From IMG/VR virus record IMGVR_UViG_3300028048_001497, positions 96,001 through 160,000 of that record: a DNA stretch of 64,000 nucleotides; one strand, given 5' to 3'. Made by a program: the position numbers and the translations under genes. The notes beneath the pieces were generated by a model. The model saw only the letters and a list, made by a program, of their open reading frames with translations, did not search any database and was not told the DNA's origin. The number at the start of each line of letters is the position of its first letter. Within the stretch, counting starts at the first letter, position 1. This stretch comes from a virus (Duplodnaviria > Caudoviricetes). Below are positions 2,454-35,343 of the stretch, in pieces.

Positions 2454-3575
2454 ATGGAAAAATATATTAAGGGGTTTAAGTTTAGAATCTATCCTAACAA
2501 GACACAACAACAACTCATTAATAGTATTTTAGGCTGTTGCAGGTTTGTATATAATCATTTTCTCGACATCCGTAAAAATGAATGGAAAGCAAATCATAAC
2601 TCACTGACCTATGCTAAGACAAGTAAACTTCTCACAGACTTAAAAAAGCGAGAGGACACATCATGGCTAAAAGAAGCAGATAGTACTGCATTACAGCAGT
2701 CTTTGCGTGACCTTGACCGTGCCTATGAAAACTTCTTCAAAAAGAGAGCAGGCTATCCGCGTTTTAAGTCAAAGCATAGTAGCAGTCAGTCCTATCGTAC
2801 AATCAATCAAAAAGATGGTATTCGCATCGTAGATAAAAAGATAAAACTTCCTAAGATTGGTTTTGTGAAAATCAAGCAAAGCCGTACTTTTGAAGGTCGT
2901 ATCTTAAACGCTACGATAAGCCATATAGCTTCAGGAAAATACTTTATTTCTCTTTGTGTAGAGATGGATAAAGAAAAACTAATTTCAACTAACGATGGTA
3001 AACAGATTGGTATTGATGTTGGTTTGAAAGAATTCTATACTGATAGTAACGAAAACATCATTGCTAATCCTAGAGTTCTCAAAAAACTATCAAAAAAGTT
3101 AGCTAGAGAACAAAGGAGACTTTCTCATAAAATTCCTAAATCTAGGAATAGAGAAAAAGCTCGTATTCGTGTAGCTAAAGTTTACGAACGTATTACAAAC
3201 ATTCGCAAAGACTTTTTACACAAGTTGTCTACACGACTTGCTCGTGAAAACCAAACGATAGCCGTGGAGCACTTGAATATCAAAGGGATGTTAAAGAACC
3301 ATAGACTAGCAAAGTCTATTTCAGATGTAAGTTGGTCAGAGTTCTTCCGTCAGCTTGAGTACAAAACAGAATTACATGGTGGAGAACTACTCAAAATAGA
3401 TATGTTCTATCCATCAAGTCAAATTTGTTCTAATTGTGGTTATCAAAATGCAGAAATTAAAAATCTTAGCATCAGGGAGTGGGTTTGTCCTAAATGTGGA
3501 GCACACCATGATAGGGATATTAACGCAGCAAAGAATGTTTTGCGTAAAGCACTAGAAGAAAAACAAACAGCTTAA
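2454..3575 (+). CDS. tnpB: TnpB RNA-guided endonuclease
   Basis: N-terminal KFRIYPN...GCCRFVYN, RuvC residues GIDVG / VEHL / DRDINAA all intact, zinc finger CSNC...CPKC. Confidence 0.95.
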   Translation: MEKYIKGFKFRIYPNKTQQQLINSILGCCRFVYNHFLDIRKNEWKANHNSLTYAKTSKLLTDLKKREDTSWLKEADSTALQQSLRDLDRAYENFFKKRAGYPRFKSKHSSSQSYRTINQKDGIRIVDKKIKLPKIGFVKIKQSRTFEGRILNATISHIASGKYFISLCVEMDKEKLISTNDGKQIGIDVGLKEFYTDSNENIIANPRVLKKLSKKLAREQRRLSHKIPKSRNREKARIRVAKVYERITNIRKDFLHKLSTRLARENQTIAVEHLNIKGMLKNHRLAKSISDVSWSEFFRQLEYKTELHGGELLKIDMFYPSSQICSNCGYQNAEIKNLSIREWVCPKCGAHHDRDINAAKNVLRKALEEKQTA

Positions 3576-5151: not shown

Positions 5152-8100
5152 ATGGCAGATAATGGTGTTGAAAATAGTAAAATTTTTGATGTAAGCGGTG
5201 TTAATAAAACGAATGAAACAGGAACATCTATAACCGAAGGTGCTACTCAAACAAAAATTAATATGCAGAGTGATTTTACTAGCATTGGCAACAGTATTAA
5301 TGGATTAAAAGATGCTTTAAAATCGGTTCAAAATGTAAGTAATCTGTATAGTATTGACGGAGCATTACAGACAATACAAAAGTTGTCACAACAAATAAAT
5401 GATTTGTCTAATTCAAACAATGTTACATTAGATGGTTCTAGCGAAATACAACATTTAACAAATATTATTCAACAAATACAACAAGAAGAAGCAAATGTTA
5501 AGAATGATTTGGAAACTGCTATAAATGTAGCAATTGATAATTCTGATACGCAAAGAGCAAATGAATATGAACAGGTTTTATCTAAAGCAGAAGATGCCGT
5601 TAGAGAAGTAACAGGCGCATTAACTCAATCTGTCAATAAAATGAGAGATGCTGGGGAGAAAAGCCAAGAAATTATTATACAACAAGCTGAACAATTAAAA
5701 CAATCAGGACATGTTGTATCAACTGCTATAAATGAAGTGGAACAGGCTACCAGCAAAGCGACAGAAAGCACACAAGGATTAGCAGAGCAGACTAAAAATC
5801 AAGTAGCAGATGTTAATGCTTTAATACAAGATTTGGAAAAATCTACAGGAACGACTAGACAATTAATCGATTCTATTTCTGATTTGTCAAAAACGTTCGT
5901 AGAACAAGGCGAAAATGGAATTGCACAAGGGTTAGAAGAATTAAAAACCCAATTAGAAGATACCCAAGCAAATCCTACTTTAGATAGTGTTTCAACTAGT
6001 GTATCTAATATAACAACGTCTGTAAATAATACATTAGCTAATTTGTCTGATTTACAAGCAACTGAAAATGGTTCTAATACAGAAATGTTGATTGGCAGAC
6101 AAAGACTATTAGAAAAAGTTAGAGATAGTTTTAACGATAAACTAGAACAAACGATAGCATTATTACAATTAAAGAACAACAATCATATTTTTGATAAAAA
6201 TATTGAAAATATGCAAAAAACTCTTAGTGAGTTAAATAGTAAATTATCTACTTCATTAGATAATAATCATAATGAATTTTTAAAAGCTATTGATAATGCT
6301 AAAACAAATTTTTTAAATATTCAAAAAAACGCAATAACTAGCGGAACAACTGAATATAATTCTATTAGTCAACAAATGGCTAAAGATAGCCTAGCTGGTA
6401 TTAAATTTAATGATTTAGCATCAGGTGCTAATGACGCTTTAATTTCACTTGAATATTCACAAGGGAAAAATACGCCTTGGTATCAGTATGTAACAACAGG
6501 AAATTTATTAGGAAATAAAACCACTTTAGCACATAATTTTAAAAATACGCAAAGAGAAGCCGTTGCAGCAGATGGTTCTTATCAATCATTAGTTAATGCA
6601 GTTATGAACGGAACGGTTGATAAAGATAATGATAATGCAAAAAAAGCAGAATTAATCGGTAATTTAGCAGGGGACACTTTATCCATGAGTGGTTCTGTCA
6701 GAAATACTGCACAAGGTATGCATTTGTTAGCTGGCGGTGGGAAAAATTTAACTGCTGAAGATAAAAAAGTCTTTGAAACTTTCCAAAAACAGATTGATAA
6801 TTCATTAGAAAATTTAACTAGAACAATTAATGCTATAGAAGATTTAGACCCTAAAAACAAGACATTAAAACAATTACGTGAAGAACAAAAAGCGTTAATT
6901 GATTTAAAGAATAAGGCAGATAAAGCGAAAGAAAGTTCTTCCGCTCTTTCAAACATATTTTCAGATATAGCAAAAGGTTTAGGAAAATTAAAGAGTTTAC
7001 TTGCAGGTGGATTGTCCTTCTTAGGATTAGGAGCATTATTGTCTCCTATGCAAATGATAAGAGGTGCTATTGGGCAAGAAGAAGCTGAAGGTAAACGTAG
7101 ATACCAAGTAGCAATTAATGACTTCTCTATGGGAGCAAATCTTAATGGTGGTCGTATTGCAGATATAGCTCGTTATAGAGCAAATGAATATTTTAAAATG
7201 ACTAACGGTATGGTTAAAGAAGATGATTATCTTAATCATTATAAAACTTTAACACAAACTGTTGGTGGACATTATAATTCTGACCCAAATTCTAATATGC
7301 AAGATATTGCTCAAATGACAGAGAATACTTTTGCATGGGGCTTAACAAATGGTGTAGATGGCTCTACCATTGGTGCTTTTTATAAAAATACATATAAAGA
7401 TTTAGGTATGTCTGCAAGTGAAGCTACACAGGCTTTGGTCAATGTAGGACAAGCTGCACAAGCAGCAGGAATACCTGTAAAACAATATGTATCAACAGTA
7501 AATCAGCTATCATCTAATTTAATTAATCATGGTGTAAGTGCACGTCAAGTTATGGCTACTATGGCACGTTTGACTGTTGGTAGAGGTATGCGTATAGAAG
7601 ATGCATCAGGATTAATTCAAAGTACTGCCAATGCTAATGAAAATATGGCAAAAGATATGAATAATAGTGCTTTTTATGGCATGATGGCAGGCCAAGGTGG
7701 TAATCCTTTTGAATTAATTTTACAAGGATTTAAGCCATATAACAAAGATGGTAGACCAAATGAGGATTATTATTCCATGATGGCTGACCGTGTATTTGCA
7801 CAGGCAGATTTAATGGGAGGTATTGGCGGTAATGGTGCTCTAGGTGGAGTTATGTATATTCAAAACCTTATGAGTCAAGGATATTCAAGAGCACAGGCTT
7901 CACAACTAGAAGATGCAAGAGCACATGGAGATAAAGGATTATTTAGAGATTTAATTAAAAAATTCGATGAAGAAAAAGACGGCGGAAAGACTGCTTATAC
8001 AGAAGCAATAGGAAAAGCAAAAGAACAATTAAAAGCTGCTGGTGACCAAGTTTCTATATTCCAAAAATTAGAAACAGATTTAGTAGAAGCCCAAAAGAAA

Positions 8101-11022
8101 TTAGGTTGGGCTATTAATAAATATTTGTCTGGGCCACTTTCAGAATTTCGTAAAGGATTCGCTAATGTTTTAGATAGATTAACTAAAACTGTTGGTGAAT
8201 TAATGAAAGCTATTGCAGATTTTGTAGGTAAACATGATATACCTGGTGCTATTAGTAATGTAGCTAATTTTGCAGAAGAAAATTCTGCACTTACTGCTAC
8301 TGCTGCGATTGGAGCACCATTAGCTTTAATTGGTGGTGGAGCAGTTGCTAAGAACTTTTTAACCAAATCTATGGCAAATTCTAACTCTAAAGTGGCACAA
8401 AACATATTAAAATATGGTTCAAAAGTGCCAGGAGCAGGAAAAATCGTAGCAGGTGGATTAGCATTAGCGGCTGGTGCAGCAGTACTTGGTTCAGGTGCAT
8501 TATCAGCATTAGTAGGAATGTTTAAAACAGGTGATGCTAAAGCACAAGCAACAAATCAAGGTTCAGAAGCAAATGATGGAATTGCAGAACAAGCGATTCA
8601 AAATTTAAATTCTAGTTTAGAATACAATGCTAATAGTGACGTTGCAAATTCTGAAGGTACTACACCTAGTTCTAGTTATAGTAGCGAGTATGCAAGTGAA
8701 CATGCTGGCGATGAAAACAGTTATTATTATGGTACAGGATGGTCAGAAGATTATAGTCAAATTGACTCTGCTTTAATAGATAAAAAAGGAGACTATAATG
8801 AAAGTCTAAGTAATGCAGAATTTTTAAATCAATCTATCAAAGAACGCTATGGCGATGAAATAGAGAATTATAAAATAGCAAATCCAAATGATGTTTATGT
8901 AAATGCAAATACAGGTGAAGCTGCAGAAGATTGGGAACAACGTGAAAAAAATCTTGACAAAACAACATTAATTAATAATGCAGGATTAATCGCAGGTGGA
9001 ACGATTGCAGTTCCTGGTGCAGCTGCATTGGCAGTTGCTAAAAAATATAATTTGATTAATAAAGATAGATGGGATGCATTAAATAATGTTGCAAAAAAAG
9101 GCAAATGGTGGTCAAGATTTGCCAAATTAGGTAAATTTGGCGGTCCTCTTGGAGCTGGGATTACTCTTGCAGACGAAATAATTAACGAATTTAGTGACGA
9201 AAATAGCGATAACTATAGTATGGGACAACACGTAGCAAGAGTTGCTTTTAGAGGTGGCGGTGCAATTGCAGGTGGTCTAGCAGGTGCAAAATTAGGAGCT
9301 TTAGCAGGTTCTTTGGTTGGCCCAGCTGGTACTATTGTTGGAGGATTTTTAGGTGGTACGGCAGGTGCTCTAATTGGTGGATTTGCAGGAGAAGGATTAC
9401 AAAATTCATCTGTTGGTGATGCATTAGGAATTTCAGATAAATCTGCCATTAAAACTGCCCATGATTCTTATGCTGCAAAAGTAAAACAATCAGCTAGTTT
9501 ATATGGTGATGCAACAAAGAGCATAGTTTCATCTAATGATAATAGACAAAAAGCAGCTGCGCGTGCTCTTTCTGAACATGGAATTAAATTGGAAGATTTA
9601 ACAAATGACCAAGAACAATACATTAATAATGTATATAATGATTTAAAGTCTCGTGGATTGGCAGATGAAGTTGCTGCGTTTGTTGCAGGATTAGCTGCAG
9701 GTACAGTAGCAGATAAGCAAAAAAATGATGCAGAATATGCTTTTAATAATGATGAAATATCAAAAGGCAAAGGAATGAAAAAAACGGCAGAGGTTGCAGC
9801 TAATGAGTGGATGACAGATGAACAAAAAGAACAAGGATTTGAAAGTTTAGACCCAAATGAATTATCAGGGCATGATACAACTTGGTCTTTGAAACTCGGA
9901 GGTATGTATTTAGAAGATGGTGGGAAAGATAATAATCTTTCTATAGAAGAAAAGAAACAACGCTTAAGTTTGTTAGGTCAAATTATGGGTGGAACGAATG
10001 CTGGTTCTGGTGAAGATAAAATTGCAAATGCTATTATGAATGATAGCGATTGGACAGATATAGCCGGTCATTTAGTTTCAGGTCCATTTAGAAACGGAGA
10101 TAGAGCAACAATAGCTAATATATTCCAAGATTCTAATTTAGAAAATTTTAGTGATGAAGATATTAATAAAGCATATAATATGGCTTATAATGAAGTTGCT
10201 TATGTTTCGTCTACACAAAATGAAGATGCCATAAAGAAAAATATGGAAAGCGTTGTCTCTACTACGCCTAATCCTAAAGATGTTGGAGACAAAATGCAAC
10301 TCAACAAGCCAAATCCTCCTGATAATCCAAATAAGGATAAGGATAAAGAACAACCTAAGAAAAATGAAAAACAAGGTGGAACTCTTGAAAGCAATATGGA
10401 TAATGCTATGAAAAACATAGAAAATATGCAAGGACAAATTGGTGAATTAGCAGGACTAAAAAATAGAGATTTGTTAAGAGATAAAATTGCTACAGGTCAA
10501 TTGCTTTTAGATGGTGCAACTGCTTTATCATCAAACGGCAAAATGTTATCTTTGCGTGGAGCTAGAGATTTGTTTAGAGCTTATTCTGGTGTAAGAGATA
10601 ATGATTTGTATGGTTCTAGCTTGCAAGGTGCATATGGTCCAAAAGGTGAAATTTTAGAAGGCGCTGGAGTATTTGATATTGGCAGAAAAATGGATGAAAA
10701 ACAACATGTAGCGTTTAAAAAATATACTGCTAGTTCTGAATATCGTAGAGACACAAGTGGACTAGATAGTGCTATGGAAGCCTTAAAACAATCCTATGAT
10801 AAAGTCCACGAACAAAATAGAGAAATTTATGATACAAAAAAAGAAGAACAAGCCAAAAAAGAAATGGAAAAGAATCAACAAATATATAAAAGTGCAGAAA
10901 TTAATATAATCAACAATAGAAAAGACGTTTATATTAATCAAGCAAAACCAATAGCAGAAACTTCTGAAGCTCAAAAAGTTGCTGAGGATAATGCAGCAAA
11001 GGCACAAGCAGGAGTTAGTTAA
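5152..11022 (+). CDS. Tape-measure-like protein 1 (1956 aa)
   Basis: Helical/coiled-coil N-terminus, Gly/Ala-rich hydrophobic glycine-zipper segments, position between chaperone and baseplate genes. Confidence 0.75.
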   Translation: MADNGVENSKIFDVSGVNKTNETGTSITEGATQTKINMQSDFTSIGNSINGLKDALKSVQNVSNLYSIDGALQTIQKLSQQINDLSNSNNVTLDGSSEIQHLTNIIQQIQQEEANVKNDLETAINVAIDNSDTQRANEYEQVLSKAEDAVREVTGALTQSVNKMRDAGEKSQEIIIQQAEQLKQSGHVVSTAINEVEQATSKATESTQGLAEQTKNQVADVNALIQDLEKSTGTTRQLIDSISDLSKTFVEQGENGIAQGLEELKTQLEDTQANPTLDSVSTSVSNITTSVNNTLANLSDLQATENGSNTEMLIGRQRLLEKVRDSFNDKLEQTIALLQLKNNNHIFDKNIENMQKTLSELNSKLSTSLDNNHNEFLKAIDNAKTNFLNIQKNAITSGTTEYNSISQQMAKDSLAGIKFNDLASGANDALISLEYSQGKNTPWYQYVTTGNLLGNKTTLAHNFKNTQREAVAADGSYQSLVNAVMNGTVDKDNDNAKKAELIGNLAGDTLSMSGSVRNTAQGMHLLAGGGKNLTAEDKKVFETFQKQIDNSLENLTRTINAIEDLDPKNKTLKQLREEQKALIDLKNKADKAKESSSALSNIFSDIAKGLGKLKSLLAGGLSFLGLGALLSPMQMIRGAIGQEEAEGKRRYQVAINDFSMGANLNGGRIADIARYRANEYFKMTNGMVKEDDYLNHYKTLTQTVGGHYNSDPNSNMQDIAQMTENTFAWGLTNGVDGSTIGAFYKNTYKDLGMSASEATQALVNVGQAAQAAGIPVKQYVSTVNQLSSNLINHGVSARQVMATMARLTVGRGMRIEDASGLIQSTANANENMAKDMNNSAFYGMMAGQGGNPFELILQGFKPYNKDGRPNEDYYSMMADRVFAQADLMGGIGGNGALGGVMYIQNLMSQGYSRAQASQLEDARAHGDKGLFRDLIKKFDEEKDGGKTAYTEAIGKAKEQLKAAGDQVSIFQKLETDLVEAQKKLGWAINKYLSGPLSEFRKGFANVLDRLTKTVGELMKAIADFVGKHDIPGAISNVANFAEENSALTATAAIGAPLALIGGGAVAKNFLTKSMANSNSKVAQNILKYGSKVPGAGKIVAGGLALAAGAAVLGSGALSALVGMFKTGDAKAQATNQGSEANDGIAEQAIQNLNSSLEYNANSDVANSEGTTPSSSYSSEYASEHAGDENSYYYGTGWSEDYSQIDSALIDKKGDYNESLSNAEFLNQSIKERYGDEIENYKIANPNDVYVNANTGEAAEDWEQREKNLDKTTLINNAGLIAGGTIAVPGAAALAVAKKYNLINKDRWDALNNVAKKGKWWSRFAKLGKFGGPLGAGITLADEIINEFSDENSDNYSMGQHVARVAFRGGGAIAGGLAGAKLGALAGSLVGPAGTIVGGFLGGTAGALIGGFAGEGLQNSSVGDALGISDKSAIKTAHDSYAAKVKQSASLYGDATKSIVSSNDNRQKAAARALSEHGIKLEDLTNDQEQYINNVYNDLKSRGLADEVAAFVAGLAAGTVADKQKNDAEYAFNNDEISKGKGMKKTAEVAANEWMTDEQKEQGFESLDPNELSGHDTTWSLKLGGMYLEDGGKDNNLSIEEKKQRLSLLGQIMGGTNAGSGEDKIANAIMNDSDWTDIAGHLVSGPFRNGDRATIANIFQDSNLENFSDEDINKAYNMAYNEVAYVSSTQNEDAIKKNMESVVSTTPNPKDVGDKMQLNKPNPPDNPNKDKDKEQPKKNEKQGGTLESNMDNAMKNIENMQGQIGELAGLKNRDLLRDKIATGQLLLDGATALSSNGKMLSLRGARDLFRAYSGVRDNDLYGSSLQGAYGPKGEILEGAGVFDIGRKMDEKQHVAFKKYTASSEYRRDTSGLDSAMEALKQSYDKVHEQNREIYDTKKEEQAKKEMEKNQQIYKSAEINIINNRKDVYINQAKPIAETSEAQKVAEDNAAKAQAGVS

Positions 11023-11043
11023 TAAAACAAGGGGTTATGTGAT

Positions 11044-14000
11044 ATGGATTACACCGAAAAATTACAACAAAAGACAAGCATTGACAAAAAAATAGCGGAA
11101 ATCTCTGACGGTGTAAGAATGGCACTTAACGAAAAACAAGCACTTGTAACAGAATTTCTTTCAAATGAAGATAATTTAGGCAAGAATGTCAAAAAAGAAT
11201 TTGAAGGTTTTGGAGACACTATTAATAAATTATCTACTATTTTAAATGTTTTTGCAAAATTACAACAATCTAGTCAATCAGGATTTATTGCAAACAATGT
11301 TAAAATGCAGGAAGATTTTTTATCGTCTTTAAGAACAATCCAAGATATGATTAAAAACGATGAAAATCTTAAACATACATTAATTAGTGTGCAAACTGGT
11401 GATGGTAAAAAAAGACAAGTATTTCGATTAATCAATAATTTTGGTAATATGATTGACGAGTTTCAAAACGAAACAGATATATCTAAATTACAATCATTAC
11501 CATTATTAAATAATTTTGATTTATCTACAATTGGTAGTGAAGATTTAAAACATATTTATGAAGCATATCAATCTCCGAATCAAATAGTTGATGTAAATGG
11601 TACAACAAAAACTTTATTTGATTTGGTTAATAATCAGTATGTAAATAAAATTTCAGATATTATTGAAAGAGCTACACATCAAGTAAAATACGCAAAAGAA
11701 GAAACACATAAAACATCAAATCAGATTTTACTAGAATTGGTCAATCAAGTAAAAGATGAAAAGTTTAGTGGTAAAACAGAAAAAGAACAAAAAGAAATAA
11801 TAAATCAACTGTTTCGTCTCAAATCATATGCAGATAAAGTAGTTGAAGAATATAGTCAAACTCCAATTGATACAAATCAAGGGAATTATGATAAAATTAA
11901 TCAATTTATTCGTTTGGCAAAAGATATTCAAAAAGAATTAGACGAACAACAAGAAGAAGAAGAAAATAAGAAAAAAACAGATGTAGATAAATTTAATAAT
12001 ATACAGGGGTTTATTGCCAATTTCTTTAGTACGATTTATGATGAAGAAACTAAAGGAACGGTAACTGATTTAAATGCATTGAATGAAGTATTAACACAAG
12101 GTTCATTTCGTGGTAAAATAAATAATCTTGCGGATGAAATGAATTATGCTAATACAAGTATAAATGATGATAATAAAGGAAAAAAAGAAAAATACGATGC
12201 AATTATTCAACAACAAAGAACACAGGTAGCTACAAAAACTTCTTTTGATAATAAAGCATTAACGGATATATCTTCTTATTTAAAAATTAATCCGACAGAC
12301 AATGATTTATTTGATGTAAGTAATGCACAGTTTGCTAATGTTGTTGATAATGTTCGTAGGAAAAACGTAGCTTTTAATAATTTAACAAAAGACTTTTTTG
12401 GTAATACTTCTTTAACTTTTAGAGCAAATGAAAATAGTAGTTTGCTAAAACCAATGATGGTTGGTGCTTATGATGTTACAAAAGCAAATAGAGAAATGCT
12501 TTCACAAGTAAGTACAAATCCAATTAGTTATGCTTTATTTACAAATGATGAAGATAAACAAAAATTACAAGAATTGTCTCAAACTGTCCATCAAACGGTA
12601 GATAAATTAAACAAAATATTGTTTGCTTATTCTAATTTGGAACAAAAACCGAATGAATATTATAAATTAAAAGATGAAAAAGAAGCACTCGAATTACAAT
12701 TACATCATATAGATGATTTACAACAATCTTTAAATGGGTTTGCAGATACATTAAGATATTTAAGAATATTTAAAGACAAGATGCTAGGTTTATTAGCAGG
12801 TGGTTTATCATTTCTAGGTATTGGTGCAATTTTACATCCATTACAGATGTTACACGATGTTACAGAACAGGCAAAACAAAATGGTCAAATGCGTTATAAT
12901 ATTGCTTTAACTGATACTGCATTTGGTGCAAATCCAAGTCAAAGCAATATTTATGATTTAAGCTATTACGCTCCGTCACATTATTTTATGGCTACTTATG
13001 GACAAATACCATATCAAACAGTAAGTGAAATGTATCGTGGATTTCAATCTTCTATTGGTGGACAATATGGTAACGGTCCTGAAGCTAACCGTAGAGATAT
13101 GGCATGGCTATCAAAAAATTTAGTCCCAGATAAAGTACTTTTAAATGTTGATAGTGGCAATTTACAAAGTTTTATGAAAACTTTTTATCGTGACATGAGA
13201 ATGTCTGCGCAAGATGCTACGATTAAATTAAGGTCTTTAGAAACATTTGCTCAAAATAACGGCATACCTGTAAATAATTTACTTCAAGCATTTAATTCAA
13301 GTAATGAAGCTATGCGCCAATTAGGTATGAACCAAGAAAAATATTTGGATGCTATGACTTCATTAATTGGAGTAAATAATATGCGTATGGAGGATGCAAA
13401 TGCATTAGTTCAACAAACTGCTCATAATACTGGTACATTCGCAGAAGATTGGTCCAGGAATATGTTTTGGGGATTATGGAAAAATCCTGAAAAATCATCA
13501 TTTGATGTGCTATTATCAGGATATAAATCGCATGATAGAAATGGTAAACCAATAGATTCATATTATGATAATTTAATTGATAGAATGTTCGCGGAACAAG
13601 ATTTCTTTGGTTCTCGTTTTGGTGGTATTCATACAACAATGGGACAAGTAAGTGCATTTAATAAAATCTTAGAACAAGGTTACACTATTAAACAAGCACA
13701 AGAGATTGTTCAATTAAAAGAAGAAGGTCGTAATGAGGAATTAAAAGAAAAATTAAAAGGTTGGGATAAATTAAAAAATGACCCTATGGCTTTACCACAT
13801 ACGACACAAGAATATACTGCTCAATTACATCAGGCAGGAGAACAATTAAGTGAATTTACAAAAATTCAAGCTACTTACAAACAATTTATTAATAACATTT
13901 CTTTCTTATTAGAAACTACCATGTCAAAAGAGTTGGAAATTGGATTAAAAGCATTAGAAAAAATTATTGATACATTTACTTCTGTTATGGTAGAAATAAT

Positions 14001-16935: not shown

Positions 16936-16944
16936 AAATTTTAT

Positions 16945-17319
16945 CGTAAGATAAGACCCCCACTTCTAAGCTACGAGGTAGCCGTTAGGCTACCGAGTAA
17001 CGAAAGTGGGGGATGACTAATACTAACTCTTGACTATTTTTACAAATAGTGATACAATTAAATCAAAGGAGGTAAAACAAAATGCTAAAAGCGTACAAAT
17101 TCAAATATCTTGAATGAAGGTAAAAGGCTACTAAAAGTAGCCTAAACCATATAAAAACTGTACCGTAGGGCTTACGGAATCAGTATAAAACTAAGCCTAT
17201 GGAGATTGTGTAAGACGTAAAAATGTATGGCTACGCCATACCTCATGCGGTTTCACCGCATACGCTACGGTCTGAGAAGTAGGAATCCCCCCACCTCTTT
17301 AGGTGGGGGAGGATGTCAA
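16945..17319 (+). mobile_element. Non-autonomous IS200/IS605 mini-element copy A (tnpB deleted, omega-RNA retained)
   Basis: 375 bp, preceded by TTTAT, ends GTCAA. Terminal hairpins, internal promoter 17030-17058, tnpB remnants. Near-identical to 47544..47918. Confidence 0.9.
17082..17145 (+). pseudogene. tnpB: tnpB remnant: N-terminus MLKAYKF joined out of frame to C-terminus NILNEGKRLLKVA*
   Basis: SD AGGAGG. Both peptide fragments are typical TnpB termini. Confidence 0.8.
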
Positions 17320-17404
17320 TTGATATAATATTTCCAATAAAATTATCTATATTTTAATTAGATGATAAAAATTTTTCATAATAGGAAGGATTTGACATAA
17401 TATT

Positions 17405-17815
17405 ATGGCAACTAAAAATAAAAATGATAAATTGATTTCTGAAATGCTTGCAGATTTGATTGACCCCAGTGAGGAAACAGAAGTTGTAGAAAAGTATGGT
17501 AAGAAATGGGCTATGCGTCCGATTTCTTCACAGGAATATCTTGAAGCATTAAAGGAAAGTCAGAGTTATAATAAAGATGATTTAACTCGTATGTTCGGTA
17601 TGCAGATTAGTATTCTTAAACATGCTTTGGTTTCTGTAAACGATTTGGTTCTTACAGATGAACAAAAGACAAAGGTTCTAAATGCAATTAGTCCTGCCGT
17701 TCTTACAACATTGTATAATGAGTTTGAAGTTATTCGTCATAAGAATGATGATGAAATTTCAAAGATTGAAAATGCTTCAGCAGAAAAAACAAAAAATGAC
17801 ACAATTGATGCTTAA
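17405..17815 (+). CDS. Putative tail assembly chaperone, short (G-like) form
   Basis: KKWAMRPISSQEY...LKHALVSVN...PAVLTTLYNEF aligns with KEWEFRTLSSEEY...LQSALLSIN...PKVIDILYQEY of 4155..5132. Confidence 0.65.
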   Translation: MATKNKNDKLISEMLADLIDPSEETEVVEKYGKKWAMRPISSQEYLEALKESQSYNKDDLTRMFGMQISILKHALVSVNDLVLTDEQKTKVLNAISPAVLTTLYNEFEVIRHKNDDEISKIENASAEKTKNDTIDA

Positions 17816-17826
17816 CAATTTTTAAT

Positions 17827-17860
17827 AAAAAAGTGGTTCTACTTGAATAGAACCACTTTT
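17827..17860 (+). terminator. Intrinsic terminator
   Basis: AAAAGTGGTTCT...AGAACCACTTTT. Confidence 0.7.
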
Positions 17861-17917
17861 ATTTTGTATTTTTTTTATAGGTATTATACGAAAAATAGAA
17901 GTTGGTGAGATTAAATA

Positions 17918-20900
17918 ATGGCTGAACAGATTGTTACATTATCTGATACACAGATAGAACAAACAAAAGAAAAGTTTGAAAAACTTACAAAAGAAATTAA
18001 TCATTTTAATGAACAATTAAATACATTAGTACAAAAATCTTTTGATAACAATAAATTCCAAGAATTATCGGTTGTAATTGAAAAAGTAGCACAGATGAAA
18101 AACAATCAGCAGGAATTTATGGATTTGTTGATGTCTGATTTGTCAGATAAAAGTTTACAACCATTATATGATGGATTAATCAATCAACGTAATATAGCTT
18201 TAACTATTATTTCTAGGATTGGCAAAATTAATGAAAAATCATCAAAGAGTTTAGACGATTTTACAAAGAATGTTGTTGATACATTAACAAAAATTTCTGA
18301 TGATTTTGCTAAAAACGTTGAAGATACAACAGATGTAATTCAAAATTTATCTTCTAATTTTAAAACAAAAGAAGATAAAATTTTAATAGACAGAAAAGTT
18401 TTTTTGAATACAATGCTACAAATGTATTCAGATTTAAAACAAGTTGATATTGCAAAACTTGATGCTTTAACAAATCTTAATGAAGAAGCAGCTAATAAAG
18501 TTATTAATAGATATTCTGGTCAGTCAAAAGCTAAATTAACCAATTTAATTAAGCGTGTTACAGAAGAAGTTAATCAAACTGTTCGAGATAATACTGTTAC
18601 AGATGGTTCTTTAAGTTTACTTGCACAAATAAAAGAAATTCGAGAATTAAATATTAATAATTCAGGTGACGTTAGAGACGTAACTAGAATGAGTAATATT
18701 TTGACTCGTTTAGCAGATGTTAATAAAGACAATCTGGAACAAAGAAAAAATGGATTACTTAGTTCTGTTTCATCTGGTAATTTTTCTGATTTTGCAAAAA
18801 TAGATAAATTTGTTACATTATCTACAGAAAAAGCAACCAAAAATATGCAAGAAATTGTATCTATGAGTGAATCCATTAGTAATAGTAATCCTGATAATCC
18901 AACTGTTGCAAAAATAAATAATGATAAAATAGTACCACAAATTCAAACTTTGATAGAAGATGTTTATAAAGCAAATTCGGAAGTTTTAACCTCTGCTATA
19001 ACAGAATTTGGCAATCAATTTGACGAAGAAGCACATGGTAATGATGAAACTCATTATAATAATGTTCAAGCATTAAATTTGTCTAATGCTTTTACTATGT
19101 CAAGAACATCAAATTATAATAATTTCCGTTTTAATAATGCTTTCAATGGCATGTTTTCTTCTGATACAGAATTAAATCAATTATACAACAATTATAACAG
19201 AAGTACATATGTCTATAATAATGAGATTAAAAGTATATTAAGTAATGAAGAAAACACATCAAAAAAATATGGTATAGATAAAAATGATTTATTGTTGAAT
19301 GATATAAAATCAGGGAGATTATCTTACGGATTAGGGAGTAGCAATCAAAATCTAATACAATTATCTCACGAATTTAATCAACGTAAATTATCTGGAGCAA
19401 ATAAACATGATGAAGAAACTGCTAAAGACATGAGTAAGATGTTGGCAGAAGCTATTCATCAAACGTATCAACAGATATATGTTACTTCTCGTTTTGACCC
19501 AGATTCTAAATTATTAAAAACATTAAAAGAACAAGCAAAACAATTAGAAGAAGAAAAAAATGATTTAGACGAAAGTATCAAGAACAAAGAACTGCAAAAA
19601 CACCATAGTTTATTTAAAGATATAAAAAGTGTAGCAGGATTTTTTGGTAAAGCACTTGCTTTAATGGGGCTAGGTGGACTATTTTCTATTCATAGTTGGA
19701 TGGATAAGATTAAAAATAGAGCCAATGCTAATGGTGAAATGTTGTATAACAACTATTTAGCAAATGCTTCTATTGGTGCTCCCATGTCTCAAAATGCGAA
19801 TGAACTTGTATTTGGATTGGGACAAAATCTTTATACTGCTTCTTATGGACAAATAGATTTTGGTGTTCCATCAGCATTTTATAGAAGTTTAGCTGGTTCT
19901 ATATTAGGTGGTCAAGGTGGACAAAAAGCAAGTGATTTAATGAATTTTACACGTGCTTTTGTTGTACCGTCACAATTATATGGAATTGATGCAGGTACAT
20001 TTTCACAAGGGATAAATGCGTTTTATTACGAAAATCGCATGTCTGCAAAAGAAACGATTGGTATGATGTATCGTGTTATGGCAGACGCTAAAAAAGCACA
20101 AATACCAATTAATCAATACATGAATCTTATTTCGCAGATGGTAACTCAATATAGAACATTAGGTTATAACGGAAAACAAACTGTTGATAACATGAGTTAC
20201 ATGATTGCAGAAGGTTATCGTGCAGAAGATGCAAAATCTTTTATTGGACAGATGTATGATGCACAACAAAACTTTTCTGCAAATTTATATAATTCTGTCT
20301 ATTCTGTTATTGGCGGTGGCGCGGATAACATGTGGCAGGGTATGTATGCTAATTTAAAAACTGTAGATAGATTTGGTAATCCATATAAAGATAGACAAAA
20401 ATATGTTGGTTCTCAAATGTTAGCTAAATTGCATATGGTTACAGATATGTTTGACAATCCTATTATGAAACAATTTGGTGCATATCAGGTAACTAAAGGA
20501 ATGGGTTTGAATATGAAAAATTCAGATGCTATTCTATATGCGATAGAAGATGGTGATGAATCAAAACTTGAAACACTTTTTGAAGGAGCACAACAAGACG
20601 AATTAAGCAAAAATCAAGCTGCAACAGAAGCTACTAAAGGTTTCACGCAGGAATTACAACAAGCGTCTAGCTTATTGTCAGAAACACAAAAGAATAAAGC
20701 AGAAATGATGGCTTCTGCTAATAAATTATCTGATAATTTTGTTGGTCATGGACAAGCTATGCAACAATTTGAACAGATAGCAGAAGAAGGTATCAATAAA
20801 GTAGAGCAGGTAATGGAGCAATTAATTGCTTTGGTTGGACAAATACCTGATTTAATAAAAAAATCCCCATTATTATCACAAGCATTTATGTTTGTAGGCC

Positions 20901-23900
20901 AACATCCATTTTTAACATTGGCAGGTGGTTTGGTAGGATGGTCATTATTAAAAAATGGTGCTAAACACGTTTTTAATTTTGCAAAAGAAAAAGCATTTGG
21001 TCATTGGAATGATGTAAAACATAAAGATGTAACAGACGAAGTTAAAGAAACTACACCGTCTGAAACAAAAACATTAAAAGAAGAAACCCCAAAATTAAAC
21101 AATAATAAAGGTTTCTTTAATAATATGAAATCCAGATTAGCGGATTGGAAACCAAAGTCATTTAATAGTAAATCATTATCTAGTTTAACAAAGAAAATCC
21201 CACATAAGGGATTGATGGGTGTTGTTGGAACAGGTATGACATTAGGGGCTATGTTATTGGGAAGTTCTTCTAGTGCTTCTGCAAATCCTTCTGAACAGGG
21301 GGACGAGAATCAATCAGAAGAACAAGATGATGAACAAAGCATAAATTCTATGTATATTATGTTCAAAACTGGTAATTCAAAAGTTACTTTCTATAACAAA
21401 GACGGTAAATTAATTGATGTAACAGGAAGAACAGGCATTGAATCGTGGTTAATGCAAAATGGATTTAGTTTGTTTAGTGCATTAACTGTTGCTACTGCTG
21501 CAGGTGCTAGTGGAAAATTTGCATATGACAAACTTAAACAGTTTAAAGAAGCAAAATTTCCAAAATTTCCTAGTGTAAAAATGCCAAAAGAAATATCTGA
21601 AAAAGATATACAAAATACAGAAAAATTAGCTAATCCATCAACAAAACCATCAATGCTAGATGCAACTCTTACTTTTTTGGGTTTAAAACCGGGTTCTGAA
21701 AAAGGTAAACCAAAAGGAAAAGAAAAATTATCTGAAAAAGAAAAAGTACCAAAAGAAAGTAATTGGTCTAAATGGGGTGGAAGATTATTTAATTTCCTTA
21801 CTGTTGCTGGTTCAGTTGGTAGTGAATTATTATCTGATGATGATAGAACAACAGGACAAAAAGTTGTAGCAGGTGGAATAGAAGCAGGTACGGAATTAGC
21901 TACATATAAAGTTTTGGATAAAACAGTAGGTAGAATACCGTATATTGGCAAACCATTAGCTTTATTATTGCCTTTTGCTGATTCTTTATCAGGTACTAAT
22001 ATAATGTCTAAAATATCAGAAAAAGCAAAGGCATTTGCAGGTGTACAGGCTAAATATAAATCTGGTAATGAAATGTTCCTTGATGCAATGAATAATCAAA
22101 CAGGAATGACAGGTGCAAGTTTTGAGAAATTAATTCATTCTGAAACTGCGCAAGGTAATTATTTTAGAAGTTATTTATCTGCAAACGGTATTGAATATGA
22201 CAAATTAAATGAACAAGAAAAATTATTCTTTAAATTGCAGATGGATGAATTAGCATTTGTGCAACAAAGTGTTGCTAAAGTTCTTGCATTAGCTATTATT
22301 GCATTAAAAAATGCACAAATATCAGGTAATTTTAATTTAAATGATGATGACGATTCTATCTTTAAAAAAGATGGAAAGAAATTAAAAGATGATATTATTC
22401 AAAAAATAAAACAAGATGCTCAAGATTCATTTCCAGAAGGTGGTCATGATTTTGAGAATATTAATCAAGCTGCACATTTTGTAAAATATGGTCAACGTTT
22501 ATATGAAAAATTAAACGATGAAGGGTATGATTCTGAAAAATTAAATCAATTAGCAAGTGCGATTACTTATGCTAAATATAGCGTTTGGGCTATGAATGGT
22601 TTTCAAGATTATGATTTGGATTATTATGGAACAACATGGACAATTACGAACCCATATGAAGATGATTCTTCTGATAGAACTGAAAGCGAAGATATTGCAG
22701 ATACCACCTATTCTGGAGGTATAACACCGGTACTTAAAGAAATTTGGGATAGGTGTCATGGAAAATCTTCGGAAGAAATATCTCGTGAACAAGCTCAAAA
22801 AATTAAAGAAGATTTACAAGAACAGTATGGCGAAACAATTGCAGAACAAATATCAAGTGGATATAATAATTTAATTTTTGCTGGTTGGGTTGGTCCTGTA
22901 AAAAAACAATATATGACTGAATATGCACAAGAAAAAATGGAAAATCCTGATAATATGGAAGATGATACACAACAAAATTCAAATCAAGCTCCAGATTTTT
23001 CAAATGCGAATGCTGGAGCATATGCAAGTATGGTAGAACAAGCTAAAATGATTTCTCAATTAACTGGTTTACCAGCAGATATAATATTTGCGCAATTAGC
23101 ATTTGAAACAGGTCAAAATCCATCTGATATGGCATATTCTGATAAAATTCATAATTATGGTGGGACTACTGTTGATATGGGGCATGGAAAAAATGATAGT
23201 GGCTTTGGTATTTATGTAAACAATAAAGAGGGCGCAGAAGCATATGTAAAAGGTACAGTCCCAGTTAGAGACCAATTACCACAATTAAAGGAAGCAATCG
23301 CACAAGGCGATTTGAAAAAATATGTACATTTATTAAAATATGGTATGGAAGAGTCTGGTAAAGGAAATTATCAATATTTTACTGGCGATGAAAATGAATA
23401 TTTAAATGGTATAATGTCTTATTTATCATTAGCTCATAAATTAGGATTGAATGGTGTAACACCTAATGGTACATTTAATTTTTCAAATTATACTCCTAGA
23501 ACTTTAAAAGAACAAAGTGATAAAGCATGGGAAGATTATAGAAAAGCAGTTGGGAATGGAAAAAAAATAAGCGGTTATTTGGTCAATGGTATTTACATTG
23601 ATACAAGTAGGCAATATCAATCTGTTGAAGAACAAGGTAAAAAATTACGTGAAGCTATGAGGGATGGTTCTTATTATACAGACCCACAAAAAGTATATCA
23701 AGAATTAGACGAACTAAACAAGAAAAATGCAAAGAAAATTGTTGAAGATACTAATACTCAAATCAAAAAACAACAAGAAAGTCAAAAACAAATACAAGAA
23801 ATGGCAAAAAAAGAAGCAGATGCAAAAAAACAACAACAGGAACAAGAAAATAAAGATAAGACTGTTTGTAGTTTGTCTGTTATGGGTACATTAAAACAAG

Positions 23901-23992
23901 GAATAGAATTAGAACAAGTATTAGATGTTATTAAAGCTATTGCGCAAGCAGACGGATTTAATACTGATACGAAAATGGTTCAACAGGGGTAA
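17918..23992 (+). CDS. Tape-measure-like protein 3 (2024 aa) with GH73/glucosaminidase-like domain
   Basis: Core paralogous to proteins 1 and 2. IIFAQLAFETG...HNYGG...YFTG near the C-terminus. Confidence 0.75.
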   Translation: MAEQIVTLSDTQIEQTKEKFEKLTKEINHFNEQLNTLVQKSFDNNKFQELSVVIEKVAQMKNNQQEFMDLLMSDLSDKSLQPLYDGLINQRNIALTIISRIGKINEKSSKSLDDFTKNVVDTLTKISDDFAKNVEDTTDVIQNLSSNFKTKEDKILIDRKVFLNTMLQMYSDLKQVDIAKLDALTNLNEEAANKVINRYSGQSKAKLTNLIKRVTEEVNQTVRDNTVTDGSLSLLAQIKEIRELNINNSGDVRDVTRMSNILTRLADVNKDNLEQRKNGLLSSVSSGNFSDFAKIDKFVTLSTEKATKNMQEIVSMSESISNSNPDNPTVAKINNDKIVPQIQTLIEDVYKANSEVLTSAITEFGNQFDEEAHGNDETHYNNVQALNLSNAFTMSRTSNYNNFRFNNAFNGMFSSDTELNQLYNNYNRSTYVYNNEIKSILSNEENTSKKYGIDKNDLLLNDIKSGRLSYGLGSSNQNLIQLSHEFNQRKLSGANKHDEETAKDMSKMLAEAIHQTYQQIYVTSRFDPDSKLLKTLKEQAKQLEEEKNDLDESIKNKELQKHHSLFKDIKSVAGFFGKALALMGLGGLFSIHSWMDKIKNRANANGEMLYNNYLANASIGAPMSQNANELVFGLGQNLYTASYGQIDFGVPSAFYRSLAGSILGGQGGQKASDLMNFTRAFVVPSQLYGIDAGTFSQGINAFYYENRMSAKETIGMMYRVMADAKKAQIPINQYMNLISQMVTQYRTLGYNGKQTVDNMSYMIAEGYRAEDAKSFIGQMYDAQQNFSANLYNSVYSVIGGGADNMWQGMYANLKTVDRFGNPYKDRQKYVGSQMLAKLHMVTDMFDNPIMKQFGAYQVTKGMGLNMKNSDAILYAIEDGDESKLETLFEGAQQDELSKNQAATEATKGFTQELQQASSLLSETQKNKAEMMASANKLSDNFVGHGQAMQQFEQIAEEGINKVEQVMEQLIALVGQIPDLIKKSPLLSQAFMFVGQHPFLTLAGGLVGWSLLKNGAKHVFNFAKEKAFGHWNDVKHKDVTDEVKETTPSETKTLKEETPKLNNNKGFFNNMKSRLADWKPKSFNSKSLSSLTKKIPHKGLMGVVGTGMTLGAMLLGSSSSASANPSEQGDENQSEEQDDEQSINSMYIMFKTGNSKVTFYNKDGKLIDVTGRTGIESWLMQNGFSLFSALTVATAAGASGKFAYDKLKQFKEAKFPKFPSVKMPKEISEKDIQNTEKLANPSTKPSMLDATLTFLGLKPGSEKGKPKGKEKLSEKEKVPKESNWSKWGGRLFNFLTVAGSVGSELLSDDDRTTGQKVVAGGIEAGTELATYKVLDKTVGRIPYIGKPLALLLPFADSLSGTNIMSKISEKAKAFAGVQAKYKSGNEMFLDAMNNQTGMTGASFEKLIHSETAQGNYFRSYLSANGIEYDKLNEQEKLFFKLQMDELAFVQQSVAKVLALAIIALKNAQISGNFNLNDDDDSIFKKDGKKLKDDIIQKIKQDAQDSFPEGGHDFENINQAAHFVKYGQRLYEKLNDEGYDSEKLNQLASAITYAKYSVWAMNGFQDYDLDYYGTTWTITNPYEDDSSDRTESEDIADTTYSGGITPVLKEIWDRCHGKSSEEISREQAQKIKEDLQEQYGETIAEQISSGYNNLIFAGWVGPVKKQYMTEYAQEKMENPDNMEDDTQQNSNQAPDFSNANAGAYASMVEQAKMISQLTGLPADIIFAQLAFETGQNPSDMAYSDKIHNYGGTTVDMGHGKNDSGFGIYVNNKEGAEAYVKGTVPVRDQLPQLKEAIAQGDLKKYVHLLKYGMEESGKGNYQYFTGDENEYLNGIMSYLSLAHKLGLNGVTPNGTFNFSNYTPRTLKEQSDKAWEDYRKAVGNGKKISGYLVNGIYIDTSRQYQSVEEQGKKLREAMRDGSYYTDPQKVYQELDELNKKNAKKIVEDTNTQIKKQQESQKQIQEMAKKEADAKKQQQEQENKDKTVCSLSVMGTLKQGIELEQVLDVIKAIAQADGFNTDTKMVQQG

Positions 23993-33890: not shown

Positions 33891-34850
33891 ATGGCGTTTC
33901 AATTAACAGATACAGATTTGCAAAATTATAGTGATAATCAAAATAATTTACAAATTCAAGATGTAGAAGCACCAAAGCCATATGCTACTTATGCAGTTTC
34001 AGCTTCAAAAAATCAGTTAGATAAATATTATGATATACAAATTCGTGTAGCTCAAATAGATTACCCAGGTAATGAAGTAATTAGTCCTTTTACACGTGAC
34101 CCAACAAATGTAACAGGTATTGTAAATGATATAGAGAAAAAAGTTTGTTTGAGAATTAATGATATAAATATGGGTGTTGCGGATTCTGTTGGTTCTACAG
34201 GAGTACAGGAACGAAAAACGAGTTATAATGTAACACAAAGAAATATTTCACAAGTTACGAATACAGATTCAATTCCGAATATACCATTAACATTTCCTTT
34301 TATTTTTACCAGTCCGTCTAATTGGTGTGGATTTAATTTTTTACCACCAGCAGGATGTAAAGTGTTAGTCGGATTTGGTAAACAGAATATGCCATATATA
34401 TTAGGTTATTTAGCAGAAAATGTAAAAGTAATATCACCTGTGTTATCTCCAGGTGAGATAATGATAAAAGGAATAGGGAATAATTACATTTATTGGAGTA
34501 GAGACGGTGTACTAACTCTTTATGCAGGTGCAGAAGAAGGAGAGTTAGATAAGAACGATTACACAAAAGAATTAACTAATAAAGAAACTGCTTCTTGTTC
34601 GATTGTATTAAATGCAAATCAAGGAGAAATTGTTTTTTCAACGAATAATTCACAAATGAGATTAAATTCACAAGGAATTAATATGGCTTATGCAAGTGGT
34701 AGTAATGTTTCATCGTTTAATATAGCTGAAGGTATTTCTTCTGATACGACAGGCAACATTTCTCGTACAAGTGCTAGTGCAACAACAAATACACCTAAAA
34801 ATTCTGATAATACTGGTGCAAAATCAAAGGTGAATGAATTATGTCGATAG
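33891..34850 (+). CDS. Baseplate spike / gpV-like protein
   Basis: OB-fold-type pattern GFNFLPPAGCKVLVGF...PYILGY, beta-rich C-terminus, position before wedge genes. Confidence 0.65.
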   Translation: MAFQLTDTDLQNYSDNQNNLQIQDVEAPKPYATYAVSASKNQLDKYYDIQIRVAQIDYPGNEVISPFTRDPTNVTGIVNDIEKKVCLRINDINMGVADSVGSTGVQERKTSYNVTQRNISQVTNTDSIPNIPLTFPFIFTSPSNWCGFNFLPPAGCKVLVGFGKQNMPYILGYLAENVKVISPVLSPGEIMIKGIGNNYIYWSRDGVLTLYAGAEEGELDKNDYTKELTNKETASCSIVLNANQGEIVFSTNNSQMRLNSQGINMAYASGSNVSSFNIAEGISSDTTGNISRTSASATTNTPKNSDNTGAKSKVNELCR

Positions 34851-35326
34851 ATGCGGAAATTTTTACAATGTGTGACCATTATACAGGAGGGAAACAATAT
34901 GCTCCTGAAAAATGTCCGAAATGTGGTGGTGTAGGGTATTATTATGATATATCCTACGATAATCAAGGACAAGCGAAATTGGTTACAGGAACGGTTAAAT
35001 TACAACAAGAAGTATTAAAAATTATTAATGATGAAAAAGGCAATAATATATTCTTTGAACGTTGGGGTTCGGAATTACATAATTTAATTGGTACGAAGAA
35101 AACAAAACTAACAAATTCAAAAGTACAAATGATGATTATCACTTCATTAGAATATTTACAATTGTTACAAAATCAAGAAAACAATTTATATAAAAATATG
35201 TCACAGGATGAAATTCTGTTAGGGATAAAAGATATAAATGTTGATGATTATACTGTTGGTTTTGATGTATCTGTAACAATAGAAAACCAATCGAATGAAA
35301 TACTGAATCAAACAGTCTTACTGTGA
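34841..35326 (+). CDS. Baseplate wedge protein, gp25/W-like, with N-terminal Cys motif
   Basis: KLQQEVLKII...GNNIFFERWGSELHNLIG; lies directly upstream of baseplate J. Confidence 0.7.
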   Translation: MSIDAEIFTMCDHYTGGKQYAPEKCPKCGGVGYYYDISYDNQGQAKLVTGTVKLQQEVLKIINDEKGNNIFFERWGSELHNLIGTKKTKLTNSKVQMMIITSLEYLQLLQNQENNLYKNMSQDEILLGIKDINVDDYTVGFDVSVTIENQSNEILNQTVLL

Positions 35327-35343
35327 AAGTTGGTGTAATATAA

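Follow-up and report, generated by a model that had tools for sequence, protein, structure and literature searches.

A 64,000-nucleotide stretch of an uncultured virus genome (referred to here as the window, bases 96001-160000 of the 174.5-kb IMG/VR virus record IMGVR_UViG_3300028048_001497) carries three genes, A, B and C, each of which encodes a protein of about 2000 amino acids (aa). These proteins are true paralogues of the tape measure protein (TMP) family, with a mutual similarity far beyond chance, and their genes occupy the TMP position within a contractile-tail module. The source is an uncultured cattle-gut giant phage that is related to Bacillus phage G and is of the giant myovirus type. 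On purely evolutionary grounds, we propose that the three products could form a mixed, in-register three-chain ruler, served by separately encoded G and GT tail assembly chaperones, the best-supported of the readings considered, although we judge it evenly poised between right and wrong.

An earlier note on this DNA, made from the letters alone, had described three colinear open reading frames (ORFs) of 1956, 1963 and 2024 aa between positions 5152 and 23992. All three were recovered exactly there and with exactly these lengths, and the whole virus record contains exactly three TMP copies. In BLASTP comparisons, A and B aligned colinearly over 620 aa (28% identity, E=7e-63), B and C over 639 aa (24% identity, E=1e-32) and A and C over 523 aa (22% identity, E=5e-18). 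In the case of B and C, a second match was obtained near the C-terminus (75 aa, 52% identity, E=6e-18). The short motifs that had been quoted as shared are present, and all of them lie within these significant colinear alignments. Common to the three proteins are a core of ~490 aa, starting at residue 512-551, and a second block located ~880 aa downstream of the core start. Profile-profile comparison of the orthologue alignments showed that this second block (~residues 1390-1500) is homologous in all three proteins (probability 91-97%), and that the last ~500 residues match between B and C alone (99.4%). The glycine zipper which had been taken as the particular cargo of A is real, but it is not specific to A, as a homologous stretch in B was detected as the second A/B BLASTP match.

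Because Pfam TMP models gave only sub-threshold scores (TMP_3 on residues 560-1110 of B, 16.5 bits versus a cutoff of 41, E=0.007), the structure of the core was predicted, using AlphaFold2 (AF2) and a 60-sequence alignment. A weak PhageMin_Tail match was also seen in a distant family member (P0053). The core model has a mean predicted local distance difference test (pLDDT) value of 85, rising above 90 across ~350 residues, and describes a compact, all-helical, repeat-like domain. When this model was compared to BFVD with Foldseek, 52 matches at E<=1e-3 were obtained, the top one being gp183 of phage G (8.9e-10). Among the named matches, almost every one is a tape-measure or minor tail protein, the sources being diverse sipho- and myoviruses, and a ‘TP901 family core region’ entry is included. 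Foldseek against the PDB gave nothing significant and only weak helical-repeat resemblances, since the solved TMP chains lack the core region. At the sequence level, the TMP cores match gp183 (2893 aa) in tblastn at 4e-16, orthologues of A, B and C match it in BLASTP at 1e-11 to 3e-32, and phrog_6700, the family of gp183, matches B at 1.9e-15. gp183 itself was detected in phage G virions by LC-MS/MS (PMC12484599).

The genes follow each other in the order sheath, two tube genes, chaperones, TMPs, gp184-like, gp185-like and baseplate, which is syntenic with the phage G tail module; the sheath protein, encoded upstream of the window, has 721 aa and is 50% identical to that of phage G. Because the gene order matches, A, B and C together occupy the one TMP slot, for which phage G has a single gene, as does L031, a more distant 322-kb contig. 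The phage G module (gp178-gp189) has the same gene order and a homologous TMP core, and its gp183 (‘tail protein with lysin activity’) holds a muralytic domain inside the TMP, as is the case here. The differences are equally clear. Phage G has one TMP gene, whereas here there are three, together with two separate chaperone genes. Its core lies at residue ~1000 instead of ~500-570, and its long chaperone form is annotated as the product of a programmed frameshift (joined coding sequence), while here the long form has a separate gene. No cultured close relative was found, because a megablast of the 19-kb region against 50,697 GenBank phage records matched nothing and tblastn against GenBank phage records, for which the cores of A and B and of a protein from the second group described below (group II) served as queries, returned phage G alone, in single copy.

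Homologues of these TMPs are rare: a set of 1.8 billion proteins contained 117 representative clusters of them. Every one is very long (1.6-4.3 kaa), and the core begins nearly always at residue ~480-690, whatever the total length. The related contigs come mostly from bovine-gut samples. Conservation of the triplet in relatives, which the earlier note had named as a check, was borne out in at least four further distinct genomes covering the locus. In every related contig reaching far enough (L005/L007, L006/L009, L010, L013 and L014), the order is GT-A-B-G-C and the ORFs are intact (Table 1), and exactly three copies were counted in one record whose completeness is rated at 98%. The maximum-likelihood tree of the core recovers each of A, B and C as a monophyletic group (99-100% support) with congruent internal branching, so that the triplication has to be old. 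Together they form one clade (99%), apart from a second, sister group. That the copies might be redundant or decaying duplicates without a joint function has nothing in its favor beyond the duplication itself, and the conservation effectively disproves it. In at least five distinct genomes, which have diverged to ~30% identity, every copy remains intact at ~2000 aa; the clades of the individual paralogues show congruent topologies, and the sister lineage retained independent duplications. A more distant contig (L012, 3-9803) carries orthologues of A and B together with a G-like gene of 116 aa, followed, where C would be placed, by opposite-strand RNA-repair-like genes (Hen1, PNKP ligase).

Table 1. 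Lengths of the three paralogues (aa) and distance (residues) from the core start to the second conserved block; where two contigs are named, the distance is that of the first
Genome	A length	B length	C length	A+B+C	A distance	B distance	C distance
Window	1956	1963	2024	5943	894	877	880
L005/L007	1940	1952	2012	5904	886	883	882
L006/L009	2028	1900	1949	5877	846	860	854
L010	2071	1957	2055	6083	849	848	842
L013	2027	1917	1961	5905	833	852	862
L014	2054	1932	interrupted by contig end		858	859	

Near-equal length in spite of strong divergence had been pointed out in the earlier note, and it extends to the relatives, where it is kept despite a core identity of 22-28% and the absence of detectable homology in the N-terminal third. 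Within a genome, paralogues match in length to 1-8%, in a family that varies almost threefold (~1600 to 4423 aa). The shared blocks are highly significant and the lengths in the relatives do not vary freely, hence two findings that could have overturned the idea of a joint ruler did not appear, and it is not refuted. In all copies of A, B and C, the core begins between residues 501 and 569. The spacing, measured from the core start to the second conserved block, co-varies between the paralogues (r=0.79-0.92), and an equally low within-genome variance was reached in 106 of 14400 label permutations; these statistics cover 5-6 genomes, or ~3-4 independent lineages, and ignore phylogeny. Between B and C, the total length is also correlated (r=0.93). 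In the ~4400-aa pair of the sister group, the second shared block begins at residues 2536 and 2538.

A tape measure accounts for ~0.15 nm of tail length per residue. If the three proteins were arranged end to end as a serial ruler, the ~5900 aa would correspond to a tail of roughly 0.9 micrometres, and the fairly constant sum of the three lengths (5877-6083 aa) would find an explanation. However, neither length matching nor identical core offsets nor identical spacing would be required in such an arrangement. Moreover, an N-terminal region and a hub-type C-terminal module are present in each copy separately, and the ~4400-aa pairs would imply tails longer than 1.3 micrometres. We therefore regard a serial ruler as very improbable. 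Alternative tail types made from one genome, which had been considered in the earlier note, are not supported either, given that the predicted tail length is the same for all three proteins.

In the sister group, the core tree shows an independent duplication that gave rise to adjacent TMP pairs. One pair (L015/L017) consists of a 4266-aa protein with an SLT domain and a 3948-aa protein with Peptidase_M23; another, in the IMG/VR record G001 (L029/L030), consists of proteins of 4423 and 4393 aa. Within each pair, identity is only ~30% across the core and a further block. Orthologues of the first pair member have 2386-2424 aa in other genomes, and in L019 this protein has its own younger adjacent paralogue. 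Altogether, this uncultured group has the same TMP family, G and GT chaperone genes, and adjacent length-matched paralogues with different enzymes. It differs from the triplet in having two copies instead of three, in a protein length about twice as large and in the separate origin of its duplication. The number of TMP paralogues seen per genome is 1, 2 or 3 only, which fits a trimer. At the length per residue given above, the sister pairs would correspond to contractile tails of roughly 600-700 nm.

The C-terminal ends give a different kind of information. The 54-aa center of the module common to B and C is 54-76% identical within a genome, compared to 27-48% for distant orthologues. Likewise, the tree of this module groups by genome lineage and not by paralogue, and monophyly of C is rejected by the approximately unbiased test (p=0.0006). 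Its third-codon identity is only 46-67%, near background. Recent gene conversion as the sole cause of the likeness was rejected for this reason, which leaves old homogenisation or protein-level co-evolution as the probable origin. The pattern would fit a selection that keeps the ends of B and C matched, as expected if both dock on one co-evolving partner. The C-terminal module of A (ATGQLxLDG...) is conserved as well, and it is distinct from that of B and C. A single complex prediction, run on the C-terminal modules of all three paralogues, gave an ipSAE of 0.02 with an uncertain fold of the partner, a value that speaks neither for nor against binding.

The cell-wall enzymes attributed to the paralogues in the earlier note are of unequal standing. 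The SLT domain of B was confirmed (Pfam PF01464, 67.7 bits versus a cutoff of 21.3, 8e-19), and the same region matched Slt70-type entries of the PDB to about 5e-5 and a solved TMP chain (9b45, gp41) at E=7e-5. In the case of the M15-like peptidase of B, there is no Pfam match, but other observations agree with the assignment. Its H-x6-D and H-x-D motifs (AHTTGRKID, YHYD) are invariant in four orthologues, and Peptidase_M15_4 was obtained as Atlas lead (0.75). An AF2 model of the domain (pLDDT 70) compared with VIA-align gave LAS-fold proteins as all of its top matches, though with middling values: the Hedgehog N-domain came first (Z 5.4-6.0), followed by VanY-like LdcB, a Zn DD-peptidase (1lbu), Ply500, MepA and VanX (Z 3.9-4.4). 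Foldseek found no match for this model at E<=1e-3. The GH73-like domain of C is plausible (E=2.8e-5 on a sub-region), but it stays below the Pfam threshold (PF01832, 25.2 bits versus a cutoff of 30.2); in C of L010 the corresponding score is 20.4 bits. The sequence FAQLAFETGQ in C resembles what we take to be the GH73 motif with the catalytic Glu.

No recognisable hydrolase is present in A of the window. A search for a hidden enzyme in its residues 1500-1745 gave no usable Atlas match and nothing in Pfam, and no useful match resulted when the C-terminal halves of A and C were searched against PDB sequences. In four relatives (L006, L013, L014 and L010), A carries an NlpC/P60 domain. In L010, SLT and GH73-like domains are both found in C (14776-20943), and B (8339-14212) has no Pfam-detectable SLT. 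In L014 and L012, B carries the papain-like C39_2 (Peptidase_C39_2) instead of SLT. As judged from these sequences, the paralogues bear different muralytic domains which are exchangeable between them in relatives, and the distribution suggests that the enzyme set is a property of the trio rather than of a single paralogue.

Two chaperone-like genes accompany the TMPs. The 136-aa ORF matches gp181 of phage G, annotated as ‘tail assembly chaperone’, at E~1e-7, and it is homologous to a 127-aa protein of L016 and a 126-aa protein of L019, which match gp181 at 1e-24 to 1e-30. Residues 20-113 of the 329-aa ORF are paralogous to the 136-aa ORF (E=3e-14). Against the L031 proteins, residues 21-115 of the 329-aa ORF match the 115-aa G-like protein and residues 145-287 match the 174-aa T-like protein, the latter stretch also matching the 289-aa T-like protein of L016. 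In all relatives, the long gene lies upstream of A (323-330 aa) and the G-like gene between B and C (137-145 aa). In lambda, the short (G) and long (GT) chaperone forms arise by a programmed -1 frameshift. The lambda proteins gpG and gpGT resemble the present pair in having a short and a long form with a common N-terminal domain, encoded beside the TMP; unlike in lambda, no frameshift was found here. The 329-aa protein is encoded by one uninterrupted ORF, and the 136-aa gene has no extended overlapping frame. The G-like and GT-like forms are thus best described as separate paralogous genes, ~12 kb apart and flanking A and B. Separate chaperone genes were also seen in the sister group (128 and 591 aa; 126 and 540 aa).

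Three metatranscriptome libraries contain contigs with exact matches to pieces of A, B, C and the G-like gene, which indicates presence only. The contigs over the G-like gene had ~10x the depth of the A, B and C pieces (three libraries from three studies), and Logan contig depths are unsuited to ranking the expression of A, B and C against each other. Behind the G-like gene there is a terminator-like hairpin, whose stem is conserved in L005. The RNA-library contigs over this gene stop just upstream of the hairpin, and a DNA contig runs through it into C. This hints, if only weakly, at an excess of the short chaperone form, made via an abundant short transcript.

Taken together, a mixed ruler could work as follows. 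A, B and C would lie together in the lumen of one tail tube, parallel and in register, as a mixed bundle, which in its simplest form would be a 1:1:1 heterotrimer in place of the usual homotrimer. The bundle would form on the hub, helped by the 329-aa GT-like and the 136-aa G-like chaperones, and from the shared length of ~2000 aa a tail of about 300 nm would result. During infection, by analogy with other TMPs, the bundle would be expelled after sheath contraction, and the glycine-rich hydrophobic segments might help to form a conduit across the membrane. The C-terminal halves would then deliver complementary hydrolases, namely a lytic transglycosylase and a LAS/M15-like peptidase from B and a GH73-like glucosaminidase from C, with an NlpC/P60 endopeptidase from A in several relatives. 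A stricter form of this proposal would make the 1:1:1 heterotrimer of ~300 nm obligate, with B and C docking by their shared co-evolving module and A by another one, and would regard the pairs of the sister lineage, the Staphylococcus jumbo phages and T4-like phages as convergent cases. We hold this stricter form only tentatively, as it is somewhat more likely to be wrong than right.

Several observations weigh against a mixed bundle. Three compact, all-helical cores of ~350 residues may, according to the model, not fit abreast into the ~4-nm lumen of a tail tube. No homology among A, B and C was detectable in the first ~500 residues by profile-profile comparison, hence a common N-terminal interaction is not evident. 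At the other end, hhalign comparison of the A module with the B/C module gave a probability of 20% and no homology. Because these modules are unrelated, the hub ends of the three chains are not equivalent, and a different role for A is conceivable. In addition, the total length of A does not co-vary with that of B or C (r=-0.37 and -0.04, respectively), and the small number of independent lineages behind the spacing statistics has to be kept in mind. Finally, matched length could also stem from separate homotrimers made for the same tail.

With such separate homotrimers, or with random mixing of the chains, one burst would contain tails of equal length but with different muralytic cargo, a form of bet-hedging on wall states or hosts. 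This requires equal length only, every version having to fit the same tube, and it agrees with cargo that differs between the copies and is reshuffled among them. The conserved hairpin and the promoter-like sites between B, G and C would permit a separate regulation of C. Left unexplained are, however, the inter-landmark spacing that co-varies to within ~2%, the homogenised C-terminal module of B and C beside a different one in A, and the absence of copy loss in any lineage. Overall, we consider separate homotrimers or random mixing unlikely.

Another possibility is that only one ruler exists, for example C, whose gene directly follows the G-like chaperone gene, or B together with C. The other copies would then be TMP-derived ejection or tail-lysin passengers in the lumen or hub. 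In line with this, A differs from B and C at its C-terminus and varies independently in total length, and of the two copies in Staphylococcus jumbo phages, one is annotated as a tail lysin (PMC10638138). On the other hand, A keeps the core offset and the core-to-block spacing of B and C and is equally strictly conserved. A lumen passenger would, furthermore, itself count as a member of a mixed bundle, so that the distinction from the three-chain ruler largely disappears. A single ruler with passengers appears improbable to us.

To our knowledge, the tape measure in every solved tail is a homotrimer made from one gene. T5 Pb2, mycobacteriophage TM4 Tmp and SPbeta YomI, which we take to be single TMPs with embedded muralytic domains, resemble A, B and C in uniting a ruler and a cell-wall hydrolase in one polypeptide. 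They differ in being one-gene products that form homotrimers, whereas here three genes are involved. The premise of the earlier note, one TMP gene per phage, is the rule but not an absolute one, as tandem pairs are found in Staphylococcus jumbo phages (bioRxiv 10.1101/2020.12.14.422802; PMC10638138). In the MarsHill group (MarsHill, Madawaska and Machias), ‘two potential tape measure proteins’ have been reported (bioRxiv 10.1101/2020.12.14.422802), and in vB_SauM-UFV_DC4 the ORFs 259 and 260 encode a ‘tail lysozyme’ of 1962 aa plus a ‘tail tape measure protein’ of 1990 aa (PMC10638138). These are adjacent TMP-like genes of near-equal length (~2000 aa) with different peptidoglycan hydrolases, as in the window. 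They are present in two copies instead of three and belong to another lineage (AR9/BpSp-like), and the likeness was drawn from their descriptions. With such tandem pairs known, the gene arrangement is not unprecedented. Full-text literature searches found no description of a hetero-oligomeric TMP, and no published co-variation or co-assembly analysis of the Staphylococcus tandem TMPs was found in the literature searched. The wording ‘two tape measure’ in the paper on phage Shady refers to chaperones and not to duplicate TMPs.

If a three-chain ruler were confirmed, it would change the view of how tail length is determined and how the tail lumen is packed. It would represent a gene triplication that turned a homo-oligomer into a hetero-oligomer with divided labour, and it would account for the delivery of several wall-degrading enzymes by giant phages through a single narrow tube. 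An obligate heterotrimer would mean up to four different peptidoglycan hydrolases per injection device and would be the first hetero-oligomeric tape measure. Concrete, testable predictions arise from the matched independent duplications, from the coordinated changes in spacing, from a B/C module whose history is that of the genome and from the mobile enzymes, and the cultivable Staphylococcus jumbo phages, with their tandem pair, would allow the principle to be tested. In annotation pipelines, extra TMP copies should not be labelled ‘endolysin’ or ‘tail fibre’.

The features of the locus are collected in Table 2. The window has ~30% G+C, and almost every gene lies on the + strand. Scans with Rfam and for tRNAs gave no matches in the window.

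Table 2. Features of the tail locus (window coordinates; residue numbers refer to the respective protein)
Feature	Position	Strand	Remarks
Long tail-assembly-chaperone form, G-T fusion, 329 aa	4143..5132	+	single ORF without frameshift
TMP paralogue A, 1956 aa	5152..11022	+	core 551-1046; second block ~1445-1500; glycine zipper ~1369-1411
TMP paralogue B, 1963 aa	11044..16935	+	core 518-1010; second block ~1395-1450; SLT 1509-1609; LAS/M15-like ~1672-1812
C-terminal docking-type module of B	residues ~1830-1963 of B		common to C
Putative IS200/IS605-type mini element	16945..17339	+	inserted between B and short chaperone gene; outside the TMP system
Short tail-assembly-chaperone form, G-like, 136 aa	17405..17815	+	own gene
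Intrinsic-terminator-like hairpin after G-like gene	17829..17860	+	13-bp stem and T-run
TMP paralogue C, 2024 aa	17918..23992	+	core 512-998; second block ~1392-1450; GH73-like ~1708-1809
C-terminal module of C	residues ~1850-2024 of C		common to B
gp184-like, tube-initiator-like protein, 734 aa	24041..26245	+	phage G gp184 match 1e-28; directly after the TMPs
gp185-like large hub/baseplate protein, 1824 aa	26340..31814	+	phage G gp185 3e-43; phrog_14367 9e-99
Sheath-initiator-like and baseplate wedge genes	34841..37320	+	phrog_2669, phrog_6 (4e-43), Pfam Sheath_initiator; end of tail/baseplate module

The gp184-like protein also matches a 578-aa protein of L031 (3e-30), and with the Pfam model Phage_tail_tube_init it reaches 22.4 bits, below threshold. 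The two tube genes upstream (genome positions 89879-91210) are paralogous and encode proteins of 212 and 225 aa, which are ~42% identical to each other's orthologues, and the tail tube itself may thus also be built from two proteins. Phage G has two tube genes as well, and both products are virion proteins.

Between the sheath and tube genes (genome positions 87668-91210) and the chaperone and TMP genes, there is a block of ~9 kb, with a large DNA methyltransferase (window positions 69-1973) and an insertion sequence (IS)-type transposase (2454-3575; phrog_506, 2e-133). In the relative L006, the tube genes are located directly upstream of the chaperone gene. The small element between B and the G-like gene (~395 nt) has GC-rich stem-loops, a TTGACT-N17-TACAAT promoter-like site and an 11-codon ORF. 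It represents an insertion, because it is missing in the relative L005, where the corresponding gap measures ~100 nt.

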